The notes below the pieces were generated by a model. The model worked only from the letters and a program-made list of their open reading frames with translations. It did not search any database and was not told where the DNA came from. Of a DNA stretch of 64,000 nt, positions 20,169 through 29,758 are shown in pieces. The position numbers were made by a program, and so were the translations under genes. The stretch spans positions 1,531-65,530 of the forward strand of contig JAHJKD010000050.1 of NCBI GenBank assembly GCA_018822435.1. The letters are read 5' to 3'. This DNA is from Patescibacteria group bacterium. GTDB lineage: Bacteria; Patescibacteriota; Patescibacteriia; UBA9570; JAHJKD01. Numbering within the stretch: position 1 is the stretch's first letter; each line of letters begins with the position of its first letter.

Positions 20169-20639
20169 ATGCCACAAAATAATTCAAGACCAGCTAAAAA
20201 ACCTTTTACGGAAAACGAACAAGTTCTTCTAAGGAATAAAGCAATTGATAAAATCAAAGACCTTTTTCTGCCTAATGATAAAATTCTGAAAATAATTCTT
20301 ATTGGATCTTCTGTGAAGGGATCTTTTGGGGAATATGGACCGCCCGGTTTCAGAAACAGCCTATTTTCTGATTTTGATTTCATTTTCTTTGTAAAAGACG
20401 ATTATGAAATTCCTGATTGGTTAAAAAAAGAACCGTCGGGAAAACCTTTCACTGACGACAGTCTTAATCTTGCCTATCGCAACGCAAAAATGGTCGACGA
20501 TAAATATGATATCGAATTTTTCTTTATCAGGGAAGAGAATCTGGATGATAATAATTTTATCGAAGAAGGAGAAGGGGCAGGCATTCCTTTGAAAAAGAAT
20601 TCAAAAATTGAACATCTGACTATTTTTGAAAAAAAATAA
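20169..20639 (+). CDS. Nucleotidyltransferase-fold protein (Pol-beta/MNT-like)
   Basis: 156-aa ORF with LIGSSVKGSFG...SDFDFIFFV, matching the GS-x(n)-DxD pattern. Confidence 0.65.
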   Translation: MPQNNSRPAKKPFTENEQVLLRNKAIDKIKDLFLPNDKILKIILIGSSVKGSFGEYGPPGFRNSLFSDFDFIFFVKDDYEIPDWLKKEPSGKPFTDDSLNLAYRNAKMVDDKYDIEFFFIREENLDDNNFIEEGEGAGIPLKKNSKIEHLTIFEKK

Positions 20640-20643
20640 AAAC

Positions 20644-20670
20644 GATCCGCCTATCAAGCGGGTCTTTTTT
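20644..20670 (+). terminator. Conserved hairpin family, copy 6
   Basis: GATCCGCCTATCAAGCGGGTC followed by T6. Confidence 0.7.
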
Positions 20671-20696
20671 ATTTAAAGTAATTTTAGAAAAATAGT

Positions 20697-20722
20697 GGGA
20701 CTGAATGTAAGGATTCAGTCCC
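20697..20722 (-). terminator. GC hairpin terminator of 20758..21156
   Basis: GGGACTGAAT-GTAAGG-ATTCAGTCCC (10-bp perfect stem), followed on the minus strand by ACTATTTTTCT. Confidence 0.6.
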
Positions 20723-20757
20723 GGGGGAAACAACCGCGCCTTACCGCGGGTGCGACG

Positions 20758-21156
20758 CTAGGCCACTTCGTCGAAGTAGTCCCAGCGCGCCTCATCGATC
20801 TCCTCCACGACCGCCTCGCACATCATGTAGATCATGACGTCGCGCAGCGTGATGTGAGCGGAATGGTCGACGTTGCACTCGAAACCGCAGTAGCACTCAC
20901 AGCAAGATTCCTCGCGGACACCGACGATGCCTCTAGCGGTCTGATCCAGATCCAGCCCATCCAGCATCATGTCCTCGGTGTAGCGGAACAGGACGGCGTC
21001 GGTCATATCCGACGCGCGACCGTAAGCCGCCCGCCAGGTCGAGTCCGTCTCCTTCCACCAGTGATCCGGGCCGAAATGGTCCATGATCCGGCGAGCGAGC
21101 CGCTCGATCAGGTAGGAGGAATCATGCCGGTTACCCTTTTGTTGTACGTTCATCAC
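20758..21156 (-). CDS. Hypothetical acidic 131/132-aa protein; GC-rich island gene
   Basis: SD AAGGAG lies 7 nt upstream of the ATG at 21153 (a GTG at 21156 is also possible). GC-ending codons and a Cys-rich patch CCECYCGFEC. No family recognised. The plus ORF 20695..21264 is a shadow. Confidence 0.6.
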   Translation of the reverse strand: MMNVQQKGNRHDSSYLIERLARRIMDHFGPDHWWKETDSTWRAAYGRASDMTDAVLFRYTEDMMLDGLDLDQTARGIVGVREESCCECYCGFECNVDHSAHITLRDVMIYMMCEAVVEEIDEARWDYFDEVA

Positions 21157-21232
21157 GTATCTCCTTTCAGGAGTTTTACCGCACCTGCTCCATGCAGGAC
21201 GGCGATGGCAATGCCATCATTGAGGGTCAATC

Positions 21233-21261
21233 TGTATATCACATTTTTTCAATTTTGTCAA
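21233..21261 (-). promoter_or_regulatory. Sigma70-like promoter for 20758..21156
   Basis: Minus strand TTGACA (21261-21256), 17-nt spacer, TATACA (21238-21233). Confidence 0.4.
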
Positions 21262-21279
21262 TAGTAATCCATAAAAATA

Positions 21280-21308
21280 TTGACAAATTCTATAATATTT
21301 GCTAATAT
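21280..21308 (+). promoter_or_regulatory. Sigma70-like promoter for 21343..22083
   Basis: TTGACA (21280-21285), 17-nt spacer, TAATAT (21303-21308). Confidence 0.5.
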
Positions 21309-21337
21309 TTACATAGGTTTACATAGGTTTACATAGA
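21308..21337 (+). repeat. Three tandem 10-bp direct repeats (candidate operator)
   Basis: TTTACATAGG TTTACATAGG TTTACATAGA, between the -10 box and the ATG at 21343. Confidence 0.85.
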
Positions 21338-21342
21338 TTATT

Positions 21343-22083
21343 ATGAAAGAAAAATTACATTCAATCGGAGAAACAGCTAACATTATTGGAGTTTCTATTG
21401 ATACTCTACGAAAATGGGATAAAAAAGGCATTTTGCCTTCTTTTCGACCTTCACCTACCAGTAAAAGATACTATCGCCAAGAAGATATTGATGCTTTTTT
21501 AGCAAAAGAAACCCAACTAGATCTGAAATCCATGGCTGAAAAATGGGCCATTGATCCATCTCCTTCTCCCCTGTCCCCGGAATTATATTGCCAGACAAGC
21601 GATGTTTTTCATGCTCGCCTGCAACATCTAGAGGTAGAAATAGCCCGCGTACCTAAATTAAAAGATATTTTTCCCTTAATCGTCGCTGTTATTGGTGAAA
21701 TCGGCAATAATTCTTTCAACCATAACATTGGCAATTGGCCGGATGAGCCAGGCATATTTTTTGGATACGACCTAAAAAACCGCCAAGCTGTTCTGGCTGA
21801 CCGAGGCCAAGGCATCTTAAAAACTCTGAAGCGTGTAGTGCCGGATTTGAAAAACGACCAAACTGCCCTAAAAGTTGCTTTCACCGAATATATTTCCGGC
21901 CGCGCCCCCGAAGACAGGGGCAATGGCCTGAAATTCGTCCGGGACGTAGTGACGGAAAATCCGATACAGCTAAAATTCTTTACCGGTGAGGCGCAACTGG
22001 AGTTAGAACAAAATACAGCTGATTTAGATATTAAAAAAAGCGATCTTTCCTTCCATGGCTGCATCGCCATAATAAATTTCTAA
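21343..22083 (+). CDS. MerR-type HTH fused to a GHKL (RsbW/SpoIIAB-like) ATPase/kinase domain
   Basis: 246-aa ORF. N-terminus IGETANIIGVSIDTLRKWDKKGIL...YYRQEDID is a MerR-type HTH. C-terminus has an N-box-like EIGNNSFNH, a G1-like DRGQGI and a G2-like GNGLKF. Confidence 0.7.
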   Translation: MKEKLHSIGETANIIGVSIDTLRKWDKKGILPSFRPSPTSKRYYRQEDIDAFLAKETQLDLKSMAEKWAIDPSPSPLSPELYCQTSDVFHARLQHLEVEIARVPKLKDIFPLIVAVIGEIGNNSFNHNIGNWPDEPGIFFGYDLKNRQAVLADRGQGILKTLKRVVPDLKNDQTALKVAFTEYISGRAPEDRGNGLKFVRDVVTENPIQLKFFTGEAQLELEQNTADLDIKKSDLSFHGCIAIINF

Positions 22084-22100
22084 CATCCTAATCCTATACT

Positions 22101-22385
22101 ATGAATATTTATCTAAAAAAATTTGGTACTACTCTCGTTTCCCGGCCGGCCGGCAAAGAGGCTTGGCTCGCGCTCCAACCCAATCTTAAGGAATTAGAAG
22201 AAAACGAAAAAATAATTATTGATTTCAAAGGCGTGGCCGTGCTTACCCCTTCCTGGGCGGATGAAGTCGTCTCACCTTTAAAAGACAATTTTCAAAATCA
22301 GATCAGTCTGATAAATACGGAAAATCCGTCTGTCCAAGCCACATTAACTACACTAAAAAAAGCAAAGCAAGACCAAAAATCTTAG
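22101..22385 (+). CDS. STAS-like (DUF4325-type) protein
   Basis: 94-aa ORF. Its size and the pattern ...SRPAGKEAW...IIIDFKGV..LTPSWADEV... match the STAS-like DUF4325 family as I recall it. It lies 18 nt downstream of the GHKL gene. Confidence 0.55.
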   Translation: MNIYLKKFGTTLVSRPAGKEAWLALQPNLKELEENEKIIIDFKGVAVLTPSWADEVVSPLKDNFQNQISLINTENPSVQATLTTLKKAKQDQKS

Positions 22386-22466: not shown

Positions 22467-22493
22467 ATTCCGCCGTTCAAGCGGGTCTTTTTT
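22467..22493 (+). terminator. Conserved hairpin family, variant copy 7
   Basis: ATTCCGCCGTTCAAGCGGGTC followed by T6. Confidence 0.5.
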
Positions 22494-22547
22494 GACTTAT
22501 CTATGCAAATTGCTATAAAATAGAATAGTAAACAAAAAAATAATTTC

Positions 22548-23021
22548 ATGAACAAGCAAGAAGCCCGAAGACCGACTCCTGAAAAACAAGAAATAAAAAA
22601 AGTTGAAATTGGCAATCTCGATGAGTTTGATATGGATTATTTCCACCAATTAGAGGGCGAAGACGGTTGGATCGCTATAGGACAAGATAATTGCCAAAAC
22701 CAAAAATATTTCACTCTAGGAGGAACAGAAGGAGACAAACTAGGAATAATCGGTGTTTTTGACACGGATGAAGATTCAAATATCACCCACACTGTAATTG
22801 ATCCAAAATTCCGTGGTCAAAGGCTGGCCAGCCGAGCCAAGCACGAATTGATGGACAAACTGAATCTGCCTTTTATTACTATGATAATAGATTTGGATAA
22901 TCTTCCCTCTATCAAAGCGACAGAAAAAATCCCTGGCGTTAAAAGAGTGAGCGATGATACTTATGAAGAAGAATTTCATAAGGTCAAACTTGTTTATGAA
23001 AAACCTCCAACAAATACCTAA
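22548..23021 (+). CDS. Putative GNAT-family acetyltransferase
   Basis: 157-aa ORF. VIDPKFRGQRLASRAKHELMDKL resembles GNAT motif A. Weak call. Confidence 0.45.
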   Translation: MNKQEARRPTPEKQEIKKVEIGNLDEFDMDYFHQLEGEDGWIAIGQDNCQNQKYFTLGGTEGDKLGIIGVFDTDEDSNITHTVIDPKFRGQRLASRAKHELMDKLNLPFITMIIDLDNLPSIKATEKIPGVKRVSDDTYEEEFHKVKLVYEKPPTNT

Positions 23022-24718: not shown

Positions 24719-27700
24719 CTAAACTTTTTTCTTAAAAGTCAGTCCTCTTTTCCTGGTGTAGAAGAACATGAATATCGCGAAAGCCACTATCAGGCTCAGA
24801 TTGACTATGAACAGCCACATCGTTTTGGACAGGCCCTGGCCTTCTTCCGGTATGACGAATTTACCCAGCACGATCTCATCTGTTTCCACTCCGTACAATT
24901 CCGACTGGGCGTAAACGGTATGTTCGCCCTCGGGCAGCAATTCCATGGGCACGCGGATTTCCCAGCGGCCGTATTCATCCGCCTTAGTCACCCTAACCAC
25001 TTCTTCAGACCTTATTTTCACAGTCACGGTCGCATGAGGCAAAGTCAAGCCTTTAAGCACCAACTCCGGACCAGATACATTGATCAATGTCTGAATATTT
25101 CCCTCTTCATCAATATATTCTTCAATGCCCGGCACATCCCCGTAAGTCGCCTCAAAGAAATCCATGCCTTCCACATTGGTGTCATTCACCATTAAAAGTT
25201 TCAAGAAATTTTCCATGGTTTCTTTCAGTTCCTGCCGCTCTTCTTCGGTCTGGGGCGGCCTGATGTCGCGCGGAATTTTTATTTCCTCTTCATTTACAAT
25301 TACAATGATAAATTCTTCCTCTTCTTCCTCCTCAAATGCGAGCACGATAGTTTGCCCGGCTGATGAATGTCTGCTCACCGACGTATAAGCGGTCGCCGTA
25401 GCTGCGAAAGAGGAAGGCCCGAATACTTCCGCGTAATAAACGCCGGAACCAAGTCCGTAAAAAGTCAGTTCGCCATTTTCATTGGTTACTCCGGACGATA
25501 CTTTGTAGCCGTCTTTATAGATATAGACATAAGATCCGGGCAATGGATCCCCGATCGGATCTTGTACATAATAAGATAAAGTAGAAGTCTCGATCGGATT
25601 GCTGGTCATGTTAGAATTGGTCGCGGCCGATGCCTCATTAGATGAAAACGCTGCTTCACTGCCTACCACGGCTGAATTGAAATTCGGATTAATAACCCGA
25701 ACAACAAAGTAGACCGATTTTGTCTCTCCCGGCGCGATCGCTGTATCGCTGAAATCAAGCGTTGTACCGTTTACATTAAGATCTCCGCCATATGAGGAAA
25801 GATAGGTTCCTGATGGGATATAATCGCGAATATTTATAGATGTCGCATCGCCATCGCCCGTATTTCTATATGTCAGGGAATATTTCAGATAATTTCCCGG
25901 TTCAACTGGCACGCCGTTGTCGTCAGCTGCCTTAATGACCGGACTAAATATTGCAAACACGACCAAGGCGGCCGTAATTACGCCGGCGCCGACAGCGGCC
26001 CAGTGATTTGTTTTGGCATTGCCCCGGAACTGATCGTAAGACATTTGCCAAGTGCCCTTTTTATTGGCCGGGGCGATTTTCGAGAACGACCGGGCCGGAC
26101 TCCTGAATATGACCAGGTGCGGTTTTTTTAAGCCACCGGATAAAAAGAGGGTCACCAGAAATAGCGTCAGGAATATAAATAAAAATGACCAAAGAGGTAT
26201 CTGATAAGCCGAGTAATCAAGCTCGCGGAATTCTACATTTTCATTCCCTGTCGCGGCCATGGCCATTTTAATGAACTTATTAAGCCAGGTCAGCGGAGCC
26301 GTGCCTACTGTAACAATTTTTGTAAGGGATATTTCCGGATCAAGCGAAGTATTTACATAAAACTTCTTCGCACCAGACCATTCTCCTTTCAATCCTTCCG
26401 GATCAATCGCCCGCACAGTCCAGTAATAATCTGTTTCATCATTCAATTGATTAATCACGTTCACTTCCGGGCTGCCCGTGGCTGACGTATAGGAATATTC
26501 GTAATTATTGGCCGGATCAGAATTTTTCCCTATCCTTACCCGGTAATAAAGCTGGGACTTGCTGTGGTCCGGGTCGCTGGGCGCGTCCCATTTCAGGGTC
26601 GGCGTCTGGCTGGAAGTGGTGGAGTTATTTGGTGGTGAAAAACCTGAAGTTATCTTATTAGGCGGATCATTGACATTGTTGACGGTCAGGGTCACCTGAT
26701 TGGAATTCCTCGTATCTCCCTCGGTATCTATCGCCTTGAAAGTGACCGTAGCCGTGCCGTACCAGTTCGATTTCGGGGTAAAGGTCACTTTATTCTCGCT
26801 GCCGATGCTGACAGTAATATTGGCCGGGCTGTCCGAACCCAGCACTTCATAATGCATGGCCAGGCTCCTCAGGTCCTGGAAATAGTCATCCAGGTCAAAG
26901 GCCTTTGTCAAGGTCGTATCTTCATTCCATTGCTGGTTCGGGATCGTCCCGGTCTGTATTATATTTGAAGTAGAAGTCGTAAACACGGTGCAATTCGAAT
27001 AATTAGAGTAATTGCCATAAGAATTTTTATAGCGCACGTGCCACCAATAGGTCGCGCCCTTGGCCAGACTGCCGTACGGGACCGTGTAAGAGGTATTAGC
27101 GGCCGCGTCCCCCGTATTTAGAACGGCTCCGGAATCGGCCGCGCACTGGGAAGACGAATTATAAACTTTCCACTGTGAAGCGGCATGCGTCTCAGCCGCG
27201 TCCGCAAAAGCAGAAGCCGATAAAGCCACGTCTGTTTTTTGGTCAACTGATCCATTAGCCGGAGATGTATTGGCTGGCTGGTCCGGCACAGTGGAAACGA
27301 TCGCATCAGCGATCTGATACCGCCATACTCCGTCTGTATCATAATAAGAAGGCAGACCGCCTGGATTCGTATCATCGTCCTTGCCATTAAAAGTAAAAGT
27401 CGGATTCAAAGAATCATTTGCATAGTCGCCATAAACCTTGATAGTAAAAGGACCGTATTCAGTTTTTGAACCGTTTACGTCATATTCATAATCAGTAATA
27501 TAAAACCAGGTCGGTTCGTCATCGTATTCAAAGCTGGCCGGCCCCCACGCGCCCTGATCAGTATCACCAGCCGGATAGGGCGGATTCGTAAAAGTGCCAT
27601 TACTTAAAGTGGAGCCGCTGTAAGTGGCGCCTGACTGGGGAATCACAGAAACCGTATTGCTGCCGGATTTTATCGGATTCAGGTCCTTATATAAGATCTC

Positions 27701-29758
27701 AACTGCTCCCCACCAGGTCGAGCGAATGTCAAAATTATTATTATTATTACCGATATTATTATCGGTTAAAAGCGTTGTCTCATTAGCCGCTCTGGTATCA
27801 ACAAATAAAATACCGCCGTCCGTATTGCTGTTAATCGTATTTTCCACGCCGCTACCGCCAATATCAGGCTTTGAAACCAAATCATAAGAATGTCCGATCG
27901 GCGTCTGCTTATCATAATAAGGATCATAATGATTCGGTAAATCATCTTGATTCAGGGCATGGTCAAGAGTTCCGGCCGCATAAATACCATAATCTGCATT
28001 ACCGGTCAGAGTATTGCTTTCCAAAGTCATGGTTGATCCTTCAAGAAAAACACCTGAACCGCCATTACCTGATATTGTATTGTCTCTTACGATTGGTTCT
28101 TCACCCGGAGTCTGATCAAGATTATAGTCTTGGGCAAAAATTCCATGAGAAGAATTATTGGAAATATCATTATTTTGAATTATATATCCCGCGCCAGGAA
28201 ATCCAGATGAAGAATAAACCATGCGCATAACAACACCATAGGTATTATTTTTTATAGAATTTGTCCGATTGCCTGCCGCCCCAAAATAATCATTGCCTCC
28301 CGCTTCTCCCGCTATTATATTTATGCCCATATAATTTGGAATACTGGAATCATCTTTTCCAATACCAAAATAATTTCCATAAATCATGGAATCATCTCCC
28401 ACAATATGAGAAAATAACATACCGCTGCCATCATCAGCCGGATGTGAATCAGATATTCCTGTATTCCCAATAAAATAATTTCTTTGGTCGGCTAATAATC
28501 CCGCATTTGAGCACATGTTCACGGCCCAGCCTAAATCATCTGTATCATCGCAATAGCCGATGATATTACTATAATGATTATAAATAAATCTTACGCCCTG
28601 TTCTGTTTGTCCAGGTGCTGGAGTATAAATATCACTTGTTCCAGTCGGATCTCCTCCAATAATATTTCCTGATACACGATTATGATGAAAGCCCGGATTT
28701 GTGTCCTGATCAAATCCAAAAAAGGTACCATAATCATAACCCGCCCCAACATTGCCTTCTGAACTATCATCAACTCCGTCTCCATCTGTACCAATCGTAT
28801 TATATTTAGCATCAGTATATAAATATACTCCAAAAGCCAATTCTCCATAATGGACAATAGCAGAGCCATCAGGCCGAATATTAAAATAATTACCTGACAC
28901 TTTATTTTCCTGGCTGCTCCATCCTATAAAAAGTGAATCAGTATTTTGGTCATCGCCAGCTGCAAAAATATTCCGGGCTTGTGCCGCCGTACAAGAAAAA
29001 GCCGGATCATCATCAAAGCCGGTAATATTCTCATCCGAATTATAATAACGCAATGATGCGCCATTATTGCTATTCCAAGTCGTCCCGTTATCATCCAATG
29101 CAAACCAGTTGCCGGCCACATGATTTCTGTCCGCCACTAGCATGTAGATGCCGTTTCCTGAAGAAATTGCTCCCACAATATTATTGCCCACAATAACATT
29201 TCTTTGATGACTGTCAGGCGTACCAAAACAATCCAGTCCGATCTGGCTGTCTTCTGCCCTAAAAAATATTCCATTATCATCAAAGCCTTCCACTTTCAGT
29301 CCGCTAATGCGCGAATTATCAGCCGCATCATTAAAATACAATCCATTAAGGCAAGTTCCCGTTTTTGTTATACGAATTCCAGGTCTATCATTAATTGTAT
29401 CCCATTCATTTTCCGCTGTTAGAATTAAATCTTCATTTACGTTTGGCAACTGGCCCTGTCCGTCGCCGTCCACGGTAATGGTCACCTGGCTGCCAGCCAC
29501 AGCTACACCGGCAAAATCAACAGTATCTAATCCTGGATTTCCATTGGCCGCTGTTATGGCCTCGCGCAAAGAACAGTCGCCAGGATTGCAAGCACCCGGC
29601 GCCGGATCATCGTTCCTGGTGACGGAATAAGTGGCTGCGTATCCGGAAAAAGGCACACAAAGAAAAAGCCCTCCGATTAGGAGGGCCATAAAAAATCCAA
29701 AATATTTAGCATTTTGGCAGTTTTCACCGATGGATGCTATCTTTTTCCACAGTTTCAT
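24719..29758 (-). CDS. Giant (1679-aa) surface protein with parallel beta-helix, FN3/cadherin/Ig-like and DUF11-like modules
   Basis: N-terminal signal/anchor and many NxxGIxx beta-helix turns. Also has ...VTLTVNNVNDPP..., a DUF11-like LKYSLTYRNTGDGDATSINIRDYIP and a CarboxypepD_reg-like segment. There are two internal TM helices and a C-terminal TM anchor. Confidence 0.8.
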   Translation of the reverse strand: MKLWKKIASIGENCQNAKYFGFFMALLIGGLFLCVPFSGYAATYSVTRNDDPAPGACNPGDCSLREAITAANGNPGLDTVDFAGVAVAGSQVTITVDGDGQGQLPNVNEDLILTAENEWDTINDRPGIRITKTGTCLNGLYFNDAADNSRISGLKVEGFDDNGIFFRAEDSQIGLDCFGTPDSHQRNVIVGNNIVGAISSGNGIYMLVADRNHVAGNWFALDDNGTTWNSNNGASLRYYNSDENITGFDDDPAFSCTAAQARNIFAAGDDQNTDSLFIGWSSQENKVSGNYFNIRPDGSAIVHYGELAFGVYLYTDAKYNTIGTDGDGVDDSSEGNVGAGYDYGTFFGFDQDTNPGFHHNRVSGNIIGGDPTGTSDIYTPAPGQTEQGVRFIYNHYSNIIGYCDDTDDLGWAVNMCSNAGLLADQRNYFIGNTGISDSHPADDGSGMLFSHIVGDDSMIYGNYFGIGKDDSSIPNYMGINIIAGEAGGNDYFGAAGNRTNSIKNNTYGVVMRMVYSSSGFPGAGYIIQNNDISNNSSHGIFAQDYNLDQTPGEEPIVRDNTISGNGGSGVFLEGSTMTLESNTLTGNADYGIYAAGTLDHALNQDDLPNHYDPYYDKQTPIGHSYDLVSKPDIGGSGVENTINSNTDGGILFVDTRAANETTLLTDNNIGNNNNNFDIRSTWWGAVEILYKDLNPIKSGSNTVSVIPQSGATYSGSTLSNGTFTNPPYPAGDTDQGAWGPASFEYDDEPTWFYITDYEYDVNGSKTEYGPFTIKVYGDYANDSLNPTFTFNGKDDDTNPGGLPSYYDTDGVWRYQIADAIVSTVPDQPANTSPANGSVDQKTDVALSASAFADAAETHAASQWKVYNSSSQCAADSGAVLNTGDAAANTSYTVPYGSLAKGATYWWHVRYKNSYGNYSNYSNCTVFTTSTSNIIQTGTIPNQQWNEDTTLTKAFDLDDYFQDLRSLAMHYEVLGSDSPANITVSIGSENKVTFTPKSNWYGTATVTFKAIDTEGDTRNSNQVTLTVNNVNDPPNKITSGFSPPNNSTTSSQTPTLKWDAPSDPDHSKSQLYYRVRIGKNSDPANNYEYSYTSATGSPEVNVINQLNDETDYYWTVRAIDPEGLKGEWSGAKKFYVNTSLDPEISLTKIVTVGTAPLTWLNKFIKMAMAATGNENVEFRELDYSAYQIPLWSFLFIFLTLFLVTLFLSGGLKKPHLVIFRSPARSFSKIAPANKKGTWQMSYDQFRGNAKTNHWAAVGAGVITAALVVFAIFSPVIKAADDNGVPVEPGNYLKYSLTYRNTGDGDATSINIRDYIPSGTYLSSYGGDLNVNGTTLDFSDTAIAPGETKSVYFVVRVINPNFNSAVVGSEAAFSSNEASAATNSNMTSNPIETSTLSYYVQDPIGDPLPGSYVYIYKDGYKVSSGVTNENGELTFYGLGSGVYYAEVFGPSSFAATATAYTSVSRHSSAGQTIVLAFEEEEEEEFIIVIVNEEEIKIPRDIRPPQTEEERQELKETMENFLKLLMVNDTNVEGMDFFEATYGDVPGIEEYIDEEGNIQTLINVSGPELVLKGLTLPHATVTVKIRSEEVVRVTKADEYGRWEIRVPMELLPEGEHTVYAQSELYGVETDEIVLGKFVIPEEGQGLSKTMWLFIVNLSLIVAFAIFMFFYTRKRGLTFKKKV

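Follow-up and report, generated by a model that had tools for sequence, protein, structure and literature searches.

A Putative Kinase/STAS Gene Pair Predicted to Repress Its Own Operon through Phased Direct Repeats in Patescibacteria

Introduction

Patescibacteria (CPR bacteria) are ultra-small, cannot be grown alone, and encode very few regulators; to our knowledge, almost nothing is known about how they control transcription. A two-gene locus in a 64,000-nucleotide stretch of patescibacterial DNA, here called the window, raises the question of how a DNA-binding domain fused to a kinase-like domain could serve that control. The first gene (gene A) encodes such a fusion, the second (gene B) a small STAS-like protein, and short direct repeats lie in front of the pair. 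The preliminary description, made from the letters alone, regarded the locus as a partner-switching-like pair in which a covalently attached DNA-binding domain appears to replace the sigma factor, and the repeats as a plausible autoregulatory operator. Here, we ask what the three domains are, which of them reads the repeats, and which known regulators the pair resembles.

Results

Organization of the Locus

The features of the locus are listed in Table 1. The promoter matches the consensus at 10 of 12 positions and has the TG of an extended −10 element, and its TTGAC..TGCTAAnAT layout recurs in the closest homologous loci. The repeats are indeed located between the −10 box and the ATG of gene A, as had been reported: Tandem Repeats Finder gave a period of 10 at 21308–21336, with 2.9 copies, 100% matches, and the consensus TTTACATAGG. 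While the exact 10-bp spacing of the three described repeats was borne out, they comprise two perfect copies and a third unit, TTTACATAGA, that ends in A and differs from TTTACATAGG by 1 nt. A degenerate fourth unit, TTTGCTAATA (21298–21307), is in the same phase and holds the −10 box. With this box and the expected transcription start inside it, the whole array reaches through the leader to within 5 nt of the ATG. The 29-mer of the repeats occurs once in the window, versus 0 expected (100 shuffles), and the PWM sites at 21308, 21318, and 21328 score 16.2, 16.2, and 11.6 bits, respectively. The AT-rich upstream region has other short repeats as well, such as a 9-bp unit present 2.2 times at 21243–21262.

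Table 1. Positions of the features of the locus within the window
Feature	Position	Strand	Details and basis
Operon promoter	21280–21308	+	−35 TTGACA 21280–21285, 17-nt spacer, TG-extended −10 TAATAT 21303–21308
Operator array (putative)	21298–21337	+	Four in-phase 10-bp units: TTTGCTAATA, TTTACATAGG, TTTACATAGG, TTTACATAGA
Gene A	21343–22083	+	246 aa, winged-HTH::GHKL fusion, proposed repressor-kinase
MerR-like winged HTH without coiled coil	21361–21507	+	aa 7–55
Linker and family-specific N-terminal extension of the kinase domain	21508–21672	+	aa 56–110; alignment, AF2
GHKL (Bergerat-fold) domain	21673–22080	+	aa 111–246
Gene B	22101–22385	+	94 aa, minimal STAS-like DUF4325 protein; Pfam, fold match
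Terminator-like hairpin with T-run	22469–22493	+	3′ of gene B, closes the bicistronic operon
Single operator-like site	22496–22509	−	TTTGCATAGATAAG, 14.4 bits, inverted; in the −35/−10 spacer of the next promoter

Gene A starts at an ATG without a Shine–Dalgarno (SD) sequence, as had been remarked, and this is the norm of the genome: of the 39 ORFs in the window that are 200 aa or longer, just 5 have an SD-like motif. As the genome generally lacks SD motifs, the start is no distinguishing feature of the gene. Gene B begins 17 nt past the stop codon of gene A. The neighbors of the pair in the window encode Nudix, SAM methyltransferase, GNAT, AHSA1, and TPR proteins.

Gene A Joins a Minimal Winged HTH to a GHKL Domain

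Pfam searches confirmed the MerR-type HTH that had been recognized in gene A, with matches to MerR_1 (E = 6.5e-9), MerR (E = 1.2e-8), and HTH_17 (E = 6.1e-7), the first two exceeding their gathering scores. In the fold search, the best matches for the domain were Xis, AlpA, BldC, and RdfS. AF2 places a low-confidence linker and then the GHKL domain after the HTH (aa 7–54), and both the coiled-coil dimerization helix and the effector-binding region of MerR-type proteins are absent. The HTH thus belongs to the Xis/BldC type and is not that of a classical MerR dimer. Its recognition helix comprises aa 19–28, and the codon of D20 is at 21400–21402. The database name of the protein is "MerR family transcriptional regulator," which conceals its predicted enzymatic half. 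A PADLOC match of A to "mad1" was confined to the HTH and says nothing on MADS membership.

The extension between HTH and GHKL domain contains an invariant W68 and the motif YCxTSDVFxARL, with helices predicted at aa 61–70 and 86–101 (AF2), and is kept in relatives that lack the HTH. As only ~55 aa separate the two domains, there is no internal STAS domain as in CapK. For the C-terminal half, the preliminary description had quoted three motifs of an RsbW/SpoIIAB-like core (EIGNNSFNH, DRGQGI, and GNGLKF), and these hold up well: the N-box E119-x3-N123-x3-H127 (codons 21697–21699, 21709–21711, and 21721–21723), the G1 box D153-R-G-Q-G157, and the G2 box R192-G-N-G-L-K197 were invariant in an alignment of 28 homologs. 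The core itself is supported by these motifs and by its best fold matches, SpoIIAB and RsbW, with UsfX also close, but profile searches did not see it. Up to E = 1, neither Pfam (its HATPase_c_2 model included) nor NCBIfam gave a HATPase-type match, and sequence and profile searches of the PDB gave no GHKL chain; as the PDB searches returned MerR HTHs only, the assignment needed the fold search. The top four fold matches of the domain are anti-sigma kinases that phosphorylate STAS proteins. At ~135 aa, it is of the small, single-domain Bergerat type; MutL and GyrB, by comparison, have a transducer or second domain that is missing here.

Gene B Encodes a Minimal STAS Protein

The identity proposed for gene B, a DUF4325-type STAS protein, was upheld by a Pfam match to DUF4325 (E = 1.8e-9) and by its STAS fold, closest to SpoIIAA, RsbS, and RsbV in the fold search; the Pfam STAS model did not match, and a profile of B gave nothing meaningful against PDB sequences. 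The protein consists of the STAS domain only and ends soon after the core, with family members being 84–113 aa long. The segment T49-P50-S51-W-A-D-E is invariant and lies at the N terminus of helix 2, which begins at residue 50, and S51 (codon 22251–22253) is the proposed phospho-acceptor. In a weak alignment, S51 is opposite S54 of CapS, whereas gapless alignments place P50, not S51, opposite S58 of SpoIIAA and S48 of VapS. As the match of B to SpoIIAA is not significant (hhalign E = 0.69), the acceptor position rests on weak alignments and the model.

The Pair Is Strictly Conserved but Its Neighborhood Is Not

Relatives of A were found in at least 550 species genomes, and hundreds of CPR bacteria carry the two-gene operon. 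The coupling of the two genes noted at this locus proved strict, gene B lying directly 3′ of gene A in 82 of the 82 fetched loci with room for it, and B likewise follows the relatives of A without the HTH. The two genes often overlap by 4 nt.

The preliminary description had suggested that similar pairs are enriched near restriction and defense loci. Our survey of the neighborhoods gave no support for this. Among 137 immediate neighbors from ~75 loci, no family appeared more than three times, and Pfam and PADLOC identified a mix of housekeeping genes with a few toxin–antitoxin (TA) or defense genes. Clustering of 954 neighbor ORFs from 81 loci gave no conserved third gene, be it a phosphatase, sigma factor, toxin, or cargo; the most widely shared family, a Fic protein, was present in at most 7 loci, and a toxin-type third gene was shared by none of the 81. 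Similarly, no sigma factor, PP2C phosphatase, or effector gene was linked to the pair in ~80 loci. Some loci adjoin genes for PIN/MazE, Fic, Phd, AbiEii, or an EcoRI-type methylase with GmrSD. The protein and operator variants track host lineage and show no mobile pattern. A phage origin was rejected, as just one relative was found in 2.9 million viral contigs.

The Operator Motif Covaries with One Residue of the Recognition Helix

The upstream regions of homologous pairs contain a strand-specific motif, TTTGCATAGATTT, in 73 of 79 distinct regions, ~250-fold above background. GCATAG occurs 83 times in the 79 regions (1.0 expected), with 83 occurrences on the coding strand versus 4 on the opposite one. 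PWM sites total 178, with at least one in 73 and at least two in 62 of the 79 regions, versus a background rate of 0.0088 sites per 150 nt. Successive sites are spaced by 10 bp (40 cases), 20 bp (23 cases), or 21 bp (28 cases), with operators of 2–4 direct units. Across CPR phyla, the sites overlap the −35, the −10, or the transcription start.

The base at motif position 5 follows residue 20 of A. Aspartate at this residue coincides with C in 49 of 50 cases and glutamine or methionine with T in 22 of 22, while asparagine, glutamate, or serine is accompanied by variant repeats in six of seven. The covariation extends to near-identical proteins: those of loci L009 and L010 are 95% identical in their C-terminal domains but have the helices SIENLRNW and SIDTLRQW, and their repeats are TTTTAGTAGG and TTTACCTAGG, respectively. 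Independent switches are also seen at loci L031 and L036. Because residue 20 covaries with base 5, the fusion protein A very probably binds the repeats and represses its own operon, a prediction made from sequence comparison. With the same phased motif upstream of homologous pairs and its covariation with a recognition-helix residue, the case for the repeats as an autoregulatory operator is much firmer than the "plausible" it had been given. As HTH and operator are conserved and coevolve, DNA binding seems to be a selected function of A.

No other repeat arrays were found within 6 kb on either side of ~80 loci (~1 Mb of flanks) or elsewhere in the 64-kb window, and sites downstream of gene B were not enriched (4 observed vs. 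3.3 expected), so a wider regulon near the locus was rejected. The inverted site TTTGCATAGATAAG sits in the promoter (22492–22521) of a GNAT-like gene (22548–23021). Sites of at least 14 bits numbered 2 in 1.33 Mb of flanks, and 5e-4 would be expected in the promoter spacer of the GNAT gene. This promoter is a possible second target of A.

Discussion

Proposed Mechanism and Alternatives

We consider it probable that the two genes form a self-contained phospho-switch that represses its own expression, of the class formed by the kinase/STAS regulator pairs CapK/CapS and VapK/VapS (Chambers et al., EMBO J 2026, PMC13373217), with the DNA-binding domain placed on the kinase. The binding step of this mechanism is strongly supported by the sequence data: the winged HTH of A would recognize the direct repeats TTTACATAGR (family consensus TTTGCATAGATTT), with HTHs arranged head-to-tail on one face of the helix and one protomer on each 10-bp unit. 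Bound at the array, A would cover the −10 box, the transcription start, and the leader, and we propose that this shuts off the A–B operon. From the fold, the motifs, and the strict operon coupling, we infer that A uses its C-terminal GHKL domain to bind B, in the manner of SpoIIAB with SpoIIAA, and to phosphorylate it with ATP on the invariant Ser51 or the neighboring Thr49 at the start of helix 2. The state of the kinase domain (free, B-bound, or nucleotide-bound) may then alter the multimerization of A on the repeats, and expression of the operon would follow the signal that the kinase reads. RsbW/RsbV read the ATP/ADP ratio and CapK responds to single-stranded DNA; either that ratio or a ligand of such a kind is a candidate here, and the signal may bind the conserved W68/YCxTSDVF extension. 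Beyond autoregulation, the switch may work through free B on an unlinked partner, or at a small number of other promoters, for instance that of the neighboring GNAT gene. The data are consistent with the earlier idea that, in A, a covalently attached DNA-binding domain replaces the sigma factor. A more specific form of the proposal, in which a new, CPR-wide minimal device combines a kinase that is itself the repressor on phased direct repeats with a 94-aa STAS substrate that is its anti- or co-repressor, is at this stage tentative.

Other explanations differ in what they take the kinase domain to do. GHKL domains can also serve as ATPase clamps. That A works as a clamp on DNA driven by nucleotide, or as an ATPase repressor, and not as a protein kinase is unlikely; its GHKL domains would then dimerize on ATP, as in MutL, GyrB, and MORC, and bridge the HTH protomers on the array, with B as a nonphosphorylated co-repressor or anti-repressor gating the dimerization. 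A clamp would suit an operator whose architecture needs multimerization, a pair with no linked phosphatase gene, and an acceptor serine that gapless alignments place one residue away from SpoIIAA S58. However, anti-sigma kinases with STAS substrates make up all four of the best fold matches, the ~135-aa domain lacks the transducer or second domain of MutL or GyrB, the canonical acceptor position of STAS proteins is occupied in B by an invariant T-P-S, and the nearest characterized relatives, VapK and CapK, are kinases. Classical partner switching, in which A is an anti-sigma factor or inhibitor of another unlinked protein and its HTH is incidental, B is its antagonist, and the main output the release of that partner instead of DNA occupancy, agrees with the folds, those of A being closest to SpoIIAB, RsbW, and UsfX and those of B to SpoIIAA, RsbS, and RsbV. 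We find it improbable given the conserved and coevolving HTH and operator, and none of the ~80 loci has a sigma factor or PP2C gene nearby.

Two further explanations assign the pair or its repeats to other processes. The two genes could form a TA-like or abortive-infection module, in effect VapKSC cut to two genes, where the kinase (by phosphorylating cellular targets) or free B is toxic, the partner neutralizes it, and the module is autorepressed like a type II TA system. A compact, autorepressed cassette of two genes with variable neighbors would fit such a module, as would the TA and defense genes adjoining some loci and the role of VapS, a DUF4325 protein, as the antitoxin of VapKSC. Nevertheless, with a toxin-type gene conserved in 0 of 81 loci, neighbors that are mostly housekeeping genes, and a B protein without the C-terminal tail that VapS requires against VapC, this seems quite unlikely, and the distribution of the family (variants that track host lineage and not a mobile pattern, and a single relative in 2.9 million viral contigs) also argues against it. 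The idea that another regulator binds the repeats, or that they are a chance or structural AT-rich feature and the HTH has its target elsewhere, draws on the AT-rich region and the commonness of short repeats in it, like the 9-bp unit upstream. It is strongly disfavored and in our view highly improbable: the motif is ~250-fold enriched, strand-specific, helically phased, and present in 73 of 79 upstream regions, and it tracks residue 20 of A even between near-identical proteins.

Significance of the Pair

The phospho-switch that we favor would provide a predicted regulator–operator pair for the CPR, found in at least 550 species with a clear consensus, helical phasing, and a covarying specificity residue. 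It would extend the CapK/CapS and VapKSC class of kinase/STAS transcription switches to a new domain arrangement and biological setting, and the pairing of HTH and operator in A suggests a possible role for the HTH of CapK, so far unexplained. The comparison also links DUF4325, a "domain of unknown function," to kinase substrates of the VapS type; our literature search met DUF4325 in incidental mentions only, and we found no work joining "partner-switching" with "Patescibacteria." If the kinase is itself the repressor, energy charge or a nucleic acid or stress ligand sensed at W68/YCxTSDVF would be converted directly to promoter occupancy, with no need for a sigma factor, phosphatase, or separate transcription factor. 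If true, a code in which a single residue sets the base (D20 with C, Q with T, and N with G-rich variants) would make this a readable and reprogrammable regulator–operator pair.

Comparison with Known Systems

CapK/CapS and VapKSC were described in 2026 from defense islands of Proteobacteria, and 348 of 443 CapKS cases have an immune operon downstream (PMC13373217). CapK phosphorylates S54 of CapS, a STAS-wHTH repressor that binds palindromes, while the role of the HTH in CapK itself is unexplained (PMC13373217). Like CapK, A has a Ser kinase fold of the GHKL anti-sigma type and an N-terminal HTH and is encoded directly before a STAS gene; the pair is predicted to control transcription from its own promoter, S54, the conserved serine at the start of STAS helix 2 in CapS, is opposite S51 of B in a weak alignment, and N123 in the ExxxN box of A is equivalent to the active-site N218 of CapK. 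The sequence similarity to CapK is nevertheless marginal, the hhalign match covering 25 columns only with a probability of ~10%. The domain arrangements also differ. CapK is an HTH-STAS-GHKL protein of 362 aa (Appendix Table S2 sequence), whereas A lacks the internal STAS domain, and B, unlike CapS, has no DNA-binding domain, the operator being predicted to be recognized by the HTH of the kinase. The A–B operators are direct repeats and not palindromes, and no conserved cargo or immune operon follows the pair.

In VapKSC, VapK acts on S48 of VapS, the antitoxin, whose C-terminal tail is needed to inhibit VapC (PMC13373217). The kinase gene directly precedes a DUF4325 STAS gene in both systems: VapS matches the Pfam model (PF14213) with E = 2.7e-17, and B matches VapS with hhalign E = 2e-4 over aa 1–67. 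The GHKL domain of A aligns with VapK at E = 0.003 and a probability of ~10%, collinear through the N, G1, and G2 boxes, with EIYANSFEHS in VapK opposite EIGNNSFNHN in A. However, of STAS domain and HTH, VapK has only the former and A only the latter; the A–B pair lacks a VapC/PIN gene, B lacks the inhibitory tail of VapS, and the family shows no bias toward defense islands. The best structural matches of A and B, SpoIIAB/SpoIIAA and RsbW/RsbV, share the ExxxNxxxH, DxGxG, and GxGL motifs, and B has a serine at the start of helix 2, although gapless alignment puts its neighbor P50 opposite SpoIIAA S58. In contrast to these modules, the pair has no linked sigma factor or PP2C; A differs further in its DNA-binding domain, in an N-terminal extension particular to its family, and in the insert HNxGNWPDxPG.

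On the DNA-binding side, BldC binds direct repeats of the unit AATTxxxx(C) as head-to-tail multimers on one face of the helix, with variable repeat number (PMC5859096). The HTH of A resembles it in being minimal and free of a coiled coil and in its direct-repeat operator, but it is fused to a GHKL domain, whereas BldC and Xis are stand-alone proteins of ~55–70 aa, and its repeat unit is 10 bp with the consensus TTTGCATAGA. MerR, CueR, BmrR, and SoxR share the Pfam MerR/MerR_1 HTH signature with A and differ from it in their long coiled-coil helix and C-terminal effector domain. Whereas the classical MerR operator is a palindrome within a 19–20-bp spacer, the promoter of A has a 17-bp spacer and direct repeats.

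Layout of the A–B Operon and Its Repeats

With a promoter in front of gene A, a 17-nt gap between A and B, and a hairpin with a T-run after B, the locus is a compact bicistronic operon (table below). The GC content around it is ~38%, and the window is AT-rich. The preliminary description had noted three 10-bp repeats between the −10 box and the ATG of A, and this array was recovered by Tandem Repeats Finder with a period of 10, 2.9 copies, and 100% matches. Its 29-mer has a single occurrence within the window and none in 100 shuffles, and the array ends five bases before the ATG. The 10 bases just 5′ of it (TTTGCTAATA) make a degenerate in-phase unit with the −10 box inside. A second small tandem repeat (ATTTTGTCA, period 9, 2.2 copies) lies just 5′ of the −35 box; visual inspection of homologous loci did not show it there.

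The ATG of A lacks a Shine–Dalgarno (SD) motif, as had been claimed, yet this is ordinary for the window, where an SD-like motif was found at only 5 of the 39 ORFs of at least 200 aa. TATAAT-like boxes, often TG-extended, end ~7 to 10 nt before several ATGs (e.g., 50014 on the plus strand, 41024 and 29758 on the minus strand), and the few SD motifs together with these boxes suggest that translation in the source organism is mostly leaderless or SD-independent. The 34-nt operator-filled stretch from the −10 box to the ATG of A is unusual against this background.

Features of the A–B locus, its surroundings, and two loci with kinases lacking the HTH
Feature	Position	Strand	Remark
Segment with deviating GC content	20600-21260		48–61% GC against ~38% in the region
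Longest ORFs of this segment	20758-21156; 20695-21264	−; +	132 aa; 189 aa
Period-9 tandem repeat	21243-21262
Promoter of A–B operon	21280-21308	+	TTGACA, 17-nt spacer, TG-extended TAATAT; near-consensus
Tandem array TTTACATAGG-TTTACATAGG-TTTACATAG(A)	21308-21337	+	First base is the final T of the −10 box
Gene A	21343-22083	+	246 aa
Gene B	22101-22385	+	94 aa
Hairpin with T-run	22469-22485		Downstream of B
Operator-like site TTTGCATAGATAAG	22496-22509	−	14.4 bits, inverted
GNAT-like gene	22548-23021		Next after the A–B operon
Gene for giant protein	24719-29758	−	1679 aa
HTH-less kinase and DUF4325 gene, locus L088	891-1765		4-nt overlap
HTH-less kinase and DUF4325 gene, locus L089	5001-5866		4-nt overlap

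Both domain assignments made from reading the sequence hold. Residues 7–55 of A match Pfam MerR_1, MerR, and HTH_17, all above thresholds, and the part beyond the HTH gave no match in Pfam, NCBIfam, or the PDB sequence set. Its fold matches were SpoIIAB (anti-sigma F; 11.4), RsbW (10.3), the RsbW domain of Rv1364c (10.2), UsfX (9.5), and SiaB (8.9), all five of which act on a STAS-fold protein as kinase or binding partner, and the GHKL motifs E119-x3-N123-x3-H127, D153-R-G-Q-G157, and R192-G-N-G-L-K197 are invariant across the family. Databases currently label the pair only as "MerR family regulator" and "STAS-like/DUF4325."

A Phased Operator Motif Co-Varies with the Recognition Helix

For 79 nonidentical loci, we made an unbiased count of 6-mers over the 150 nt that precede A. 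GCATAG was observed 83 times (expected, 1.0) and ATAGAT 100 times (expected, 2.5); the enrichment is nearly confined to the coding strand, the opposite strand having only 4 copies of GCATAG. An iterated weight matrix gave the consensus TTTGCATAGATTT(G), of which the window carries the variant TTTACATAGG, and yielded 178 sites in total, with at least one site in 73 of the 79 regions and at least two in 62, compared with a background rate of 0.0088 sites per 150 nt in 1.33 Mb of flanking sequence. Successive sites are spaced by 10 bp (40 times), 20 bp (23 times), or 21 bp (28 times) and scarcely ever otherwise, that is, by one or two helical turns. The placement relative to the promoter differs between groups: Microgenomates-type loci have a four-unit array with one slot taken by the −10 box; loci of the Saccharibacteria/Parcubacteria type have a motif whose 3′ end extends into the −35 TTGACA, plus a second site, 21 bp downstream, that overlaps with the −10 box; and the array of the window and its closest relatives spans the transcription start and leader.

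No second array was found in the rest of the window or in the flanks of the fetched loci. A single, very strong operator-like site lies between the −35 TTGACT (22492) and the −10 of the promoter of the GNAT-like gene. Only two sites as strong occur in the 1.33 Mb of flanks, one of them directly past the stop codon of B in another genome (L075) and inverted too. A may have the site in the window as another target, or the site may act jointly with the array.

Residue 20 of A, at position two of the recognition helix (GVSI-D-TLR), sorts with base 5 of the motif: Asp goes with xCATAG in 49 of 50 cases, Gln or Met with TGTATAG in 22 of 22, and Asn, Glu, or Ser with variants such as GGGTAGATTT, GAGTAGATTT, and TTTTAGTAGG in 6 of 7. 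Two Peregrinibacteria loci, L009 (upstream of 5995) and L010 (upstream of 3317), encode proteins with 95% identical C-terminal domains but differ in the helix (SIENLRNW vs. SIDTLRQW) and in the repeats (TTTTAGTAGG/TTTTACTAGA vs. TTTACCTAGG/TTTACATAGA), the promoter hexamers being unchanged; operator and reader have here switched jointly and recently. Similarly, L031 and L036 have Gln or Met with TGTATAG, though their nearest relatives are of the Asp/GCATAG type. These switches argue that the co-variation does not reflect shared ancestry alone.

Comparison across the family thus indicates that A recognizes phased direct repeats at its own promoter; binding by its HTH and autoregulation of the operon are well supported by these patterns, the latter probably, and most simply, as repression, given that the sites lie over parts of the core promoter. 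Such binding has a direct precedent in BldC, a MerR-like winged HTH protein that lacks a coiled coil and forms head-to-tail multimers on variable numbers of direct repeats (PMC5859096). The earlier suggestion of an autoregulatory operator is strongly reinforced by the enriched, phased motif and by the co-variation at residue 20, and it is essentially excluded that the repeat arose by chance or that some other factor binds it.

A and B Travel Together

Relatives of A number in the thousands in metagenomes. The best 120 are all full-length (239–265 aa, at least 53% identity), and those with names come from Peregrinibacteria, Gracilibacteria, and "Patescibacteria group." When one genome per species was scanned, at least 550 species proved to have a relative, most of them CPR bacteria of the Peregrinibacteria, Saccharibacteria, Microgenomates, and Parcubacteria groups, whereas 2.9 million viral contigs contained only one. 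The kinase domain defines a small, clearly bounded family, with 308 of 1.84 billion cluster representatives matching at E ≤ 1e-3. Among 87 fetched loci (L001–L087), 82 had room after A, and in all 82 a same-strand DUF4325 ORF follows directly, at distances from overlap to +25 nt with a single outlier of 225 nt; ATGA-type 4-nt overlaps are common. By this comparison, A and B form an obligate pair within one operon. One MAG (CAZWLI01) contains the pair twice, on different contigs (L024 and L025) and with operators that resemble each other without being identical; the two copies may be paralogs, or they may be strain variants brought together by co-assembly.

Some family members of ~190–200 aa (P0256, P0260, P0265, and P0311) lack the HTH but retain the W...YCxTRDVF extension, and P0278 carries a different, winged-helix-looking N-terminal domain not recognized by Pfam. 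Because such members exist, and those without the HTH still precede a DUF4325 gene, the GHKL and STAS proteins are the core, with the MerR-type HTH a fusion dominant in CPR. In L088, a HARE-HTH-domain gene immediately upstream adjoins the HTH-less kinase, which suggests that DNA binding can also reside in a protein of its own.

Genomic Neighborhood, Inferred Mechanism, and Alternative Readings

The neighbors of the pair in the window are Nudix, SAM methyltransferase, weak nucleotidyltransferase-like, GNAT-like, AHSA1/SRPBCC, and TPR proteins and a GC-rich orphan segment, with no recognized defense gene among them. This segment, directly upstream of the operon promoter, looks like foreign or decayed DNA, and its longest ORFs have no Pfam match. 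The 1679-aa protein has a signal/anchor-like segment at its N-terminus and a transmembrane segment at its C-terminus. It has no relation to the pair and is presumably one of the giant surface proteins that are typical of CPR genomes.

A rival, less probable reading makes the pair a TA-like or defense module, and enrichment near defense loci had been proposed. Among the immediate neighbors in ~75 loci, raw counts gave AbiEii three times, PDC-S01/DUF4143 three times, and one type II methylase, with PIN/MazE, Fic, and Phd adjoining the pair in single loci; these few TA or defense genes are mixed with housekeeping ones (GAPDH, formyltransferase, CCA-adding enzyme, YchF, and HrcA/GrpE), which gives no support to that enrichment. 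Clustering of 954 neighbor ORFs gave no conserved third gene, the commonest family (Fic) occurring in 7 of 81 loci. The neighborhood is variable and not a defense island signature. In three Peregrinibacteria/Gracilibacteria loci (L005/L015, 934-6923, and L010), the pair lies just upstream of hrcA-grpE-(...)-dnaK on the same strand, a possible heat-shock link that may also be only local synteny among close relatives.

The biochemical half of our model and its physiological output are what we infer. The GHKL domain of A would bind B and phosphorylate it on S51 or T49, and the state of the kinase domain (free, B-bound, or nucleotide- or ligand-bound) would be coupled to multimerization of A on the array. 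Gapless alignments of B to SpoIIAA (identical to PDB 1AUZ) and VapS place P50 opposite the phospho-serine with S51 adjacent, so the candidate acceptor is uncertain by one position; the replacement of T49 by Ala in one homolog (L001) favors S51. One candidate signal is the ATP/ADP ratio, as for RsbW/RsbV; another, suggested by the case of ssDNA and W68 of CapK, is a ligand bound at the W68/YCxTSDVF extension. As no phosphatase is linked to the pair, resetting could run through new synthesis, as proposed for CapS. Two less probable rivals to this kinase model are an ATP-driven clamp without kinase activity and classical partner switching with an unlinked target.

Relation to CapK/CapS and VapKSC

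CapK phosphorylates Ser54 of CapS, a STAS-wHTH protein (Chambers et al., EMBO J 2026, PMC13373217), whereupon the CapS dimer leaves its palindromic operators and CapS and a downstream immune operon are derepressed; deletion of the CapK HTH had no detected effect. In VapKSC, the STAS-only VapS inhibits the VapC toxin until phosphorylated (PMC13373217). We compared A and B with the sequences from the appendix of that paper (VapS being WP_135559717.1). B aligns with VapS at E = 2e-4 and weakly with CapS, S51 falling opposite S54. The GHKL domain of A is collinear with VapK through all three boxes (E = 0.003; EIGNNSFNHN in A, EIYANSFEHS in VapK) and aligns with CapK in the G1 region only. VapS itself matches Pfam DUF4325 (E = 2.7e-17), a family that PMC13373217 does not mention, and this "domain of unknown function" thus now has an experimentally characterized member, an antitoxin and kinase substrate. 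The A–B pair falls within the broad kinase/STAS class of these systems, yet it lacks the defining architecture of either one: CapK has a STAS domain inside the kinase and A has none, CapS carries a wHTH on the substrate and B does not, the pair has neither VapC nor the VapS tail, and conserved immune cargo such as that downstream of CapK/CapS is absent. The pair is a new architecture within this recently described class of regulators, widespread in CPR bacteria, and its regulator–operator code and fused layout are new and directly testable.
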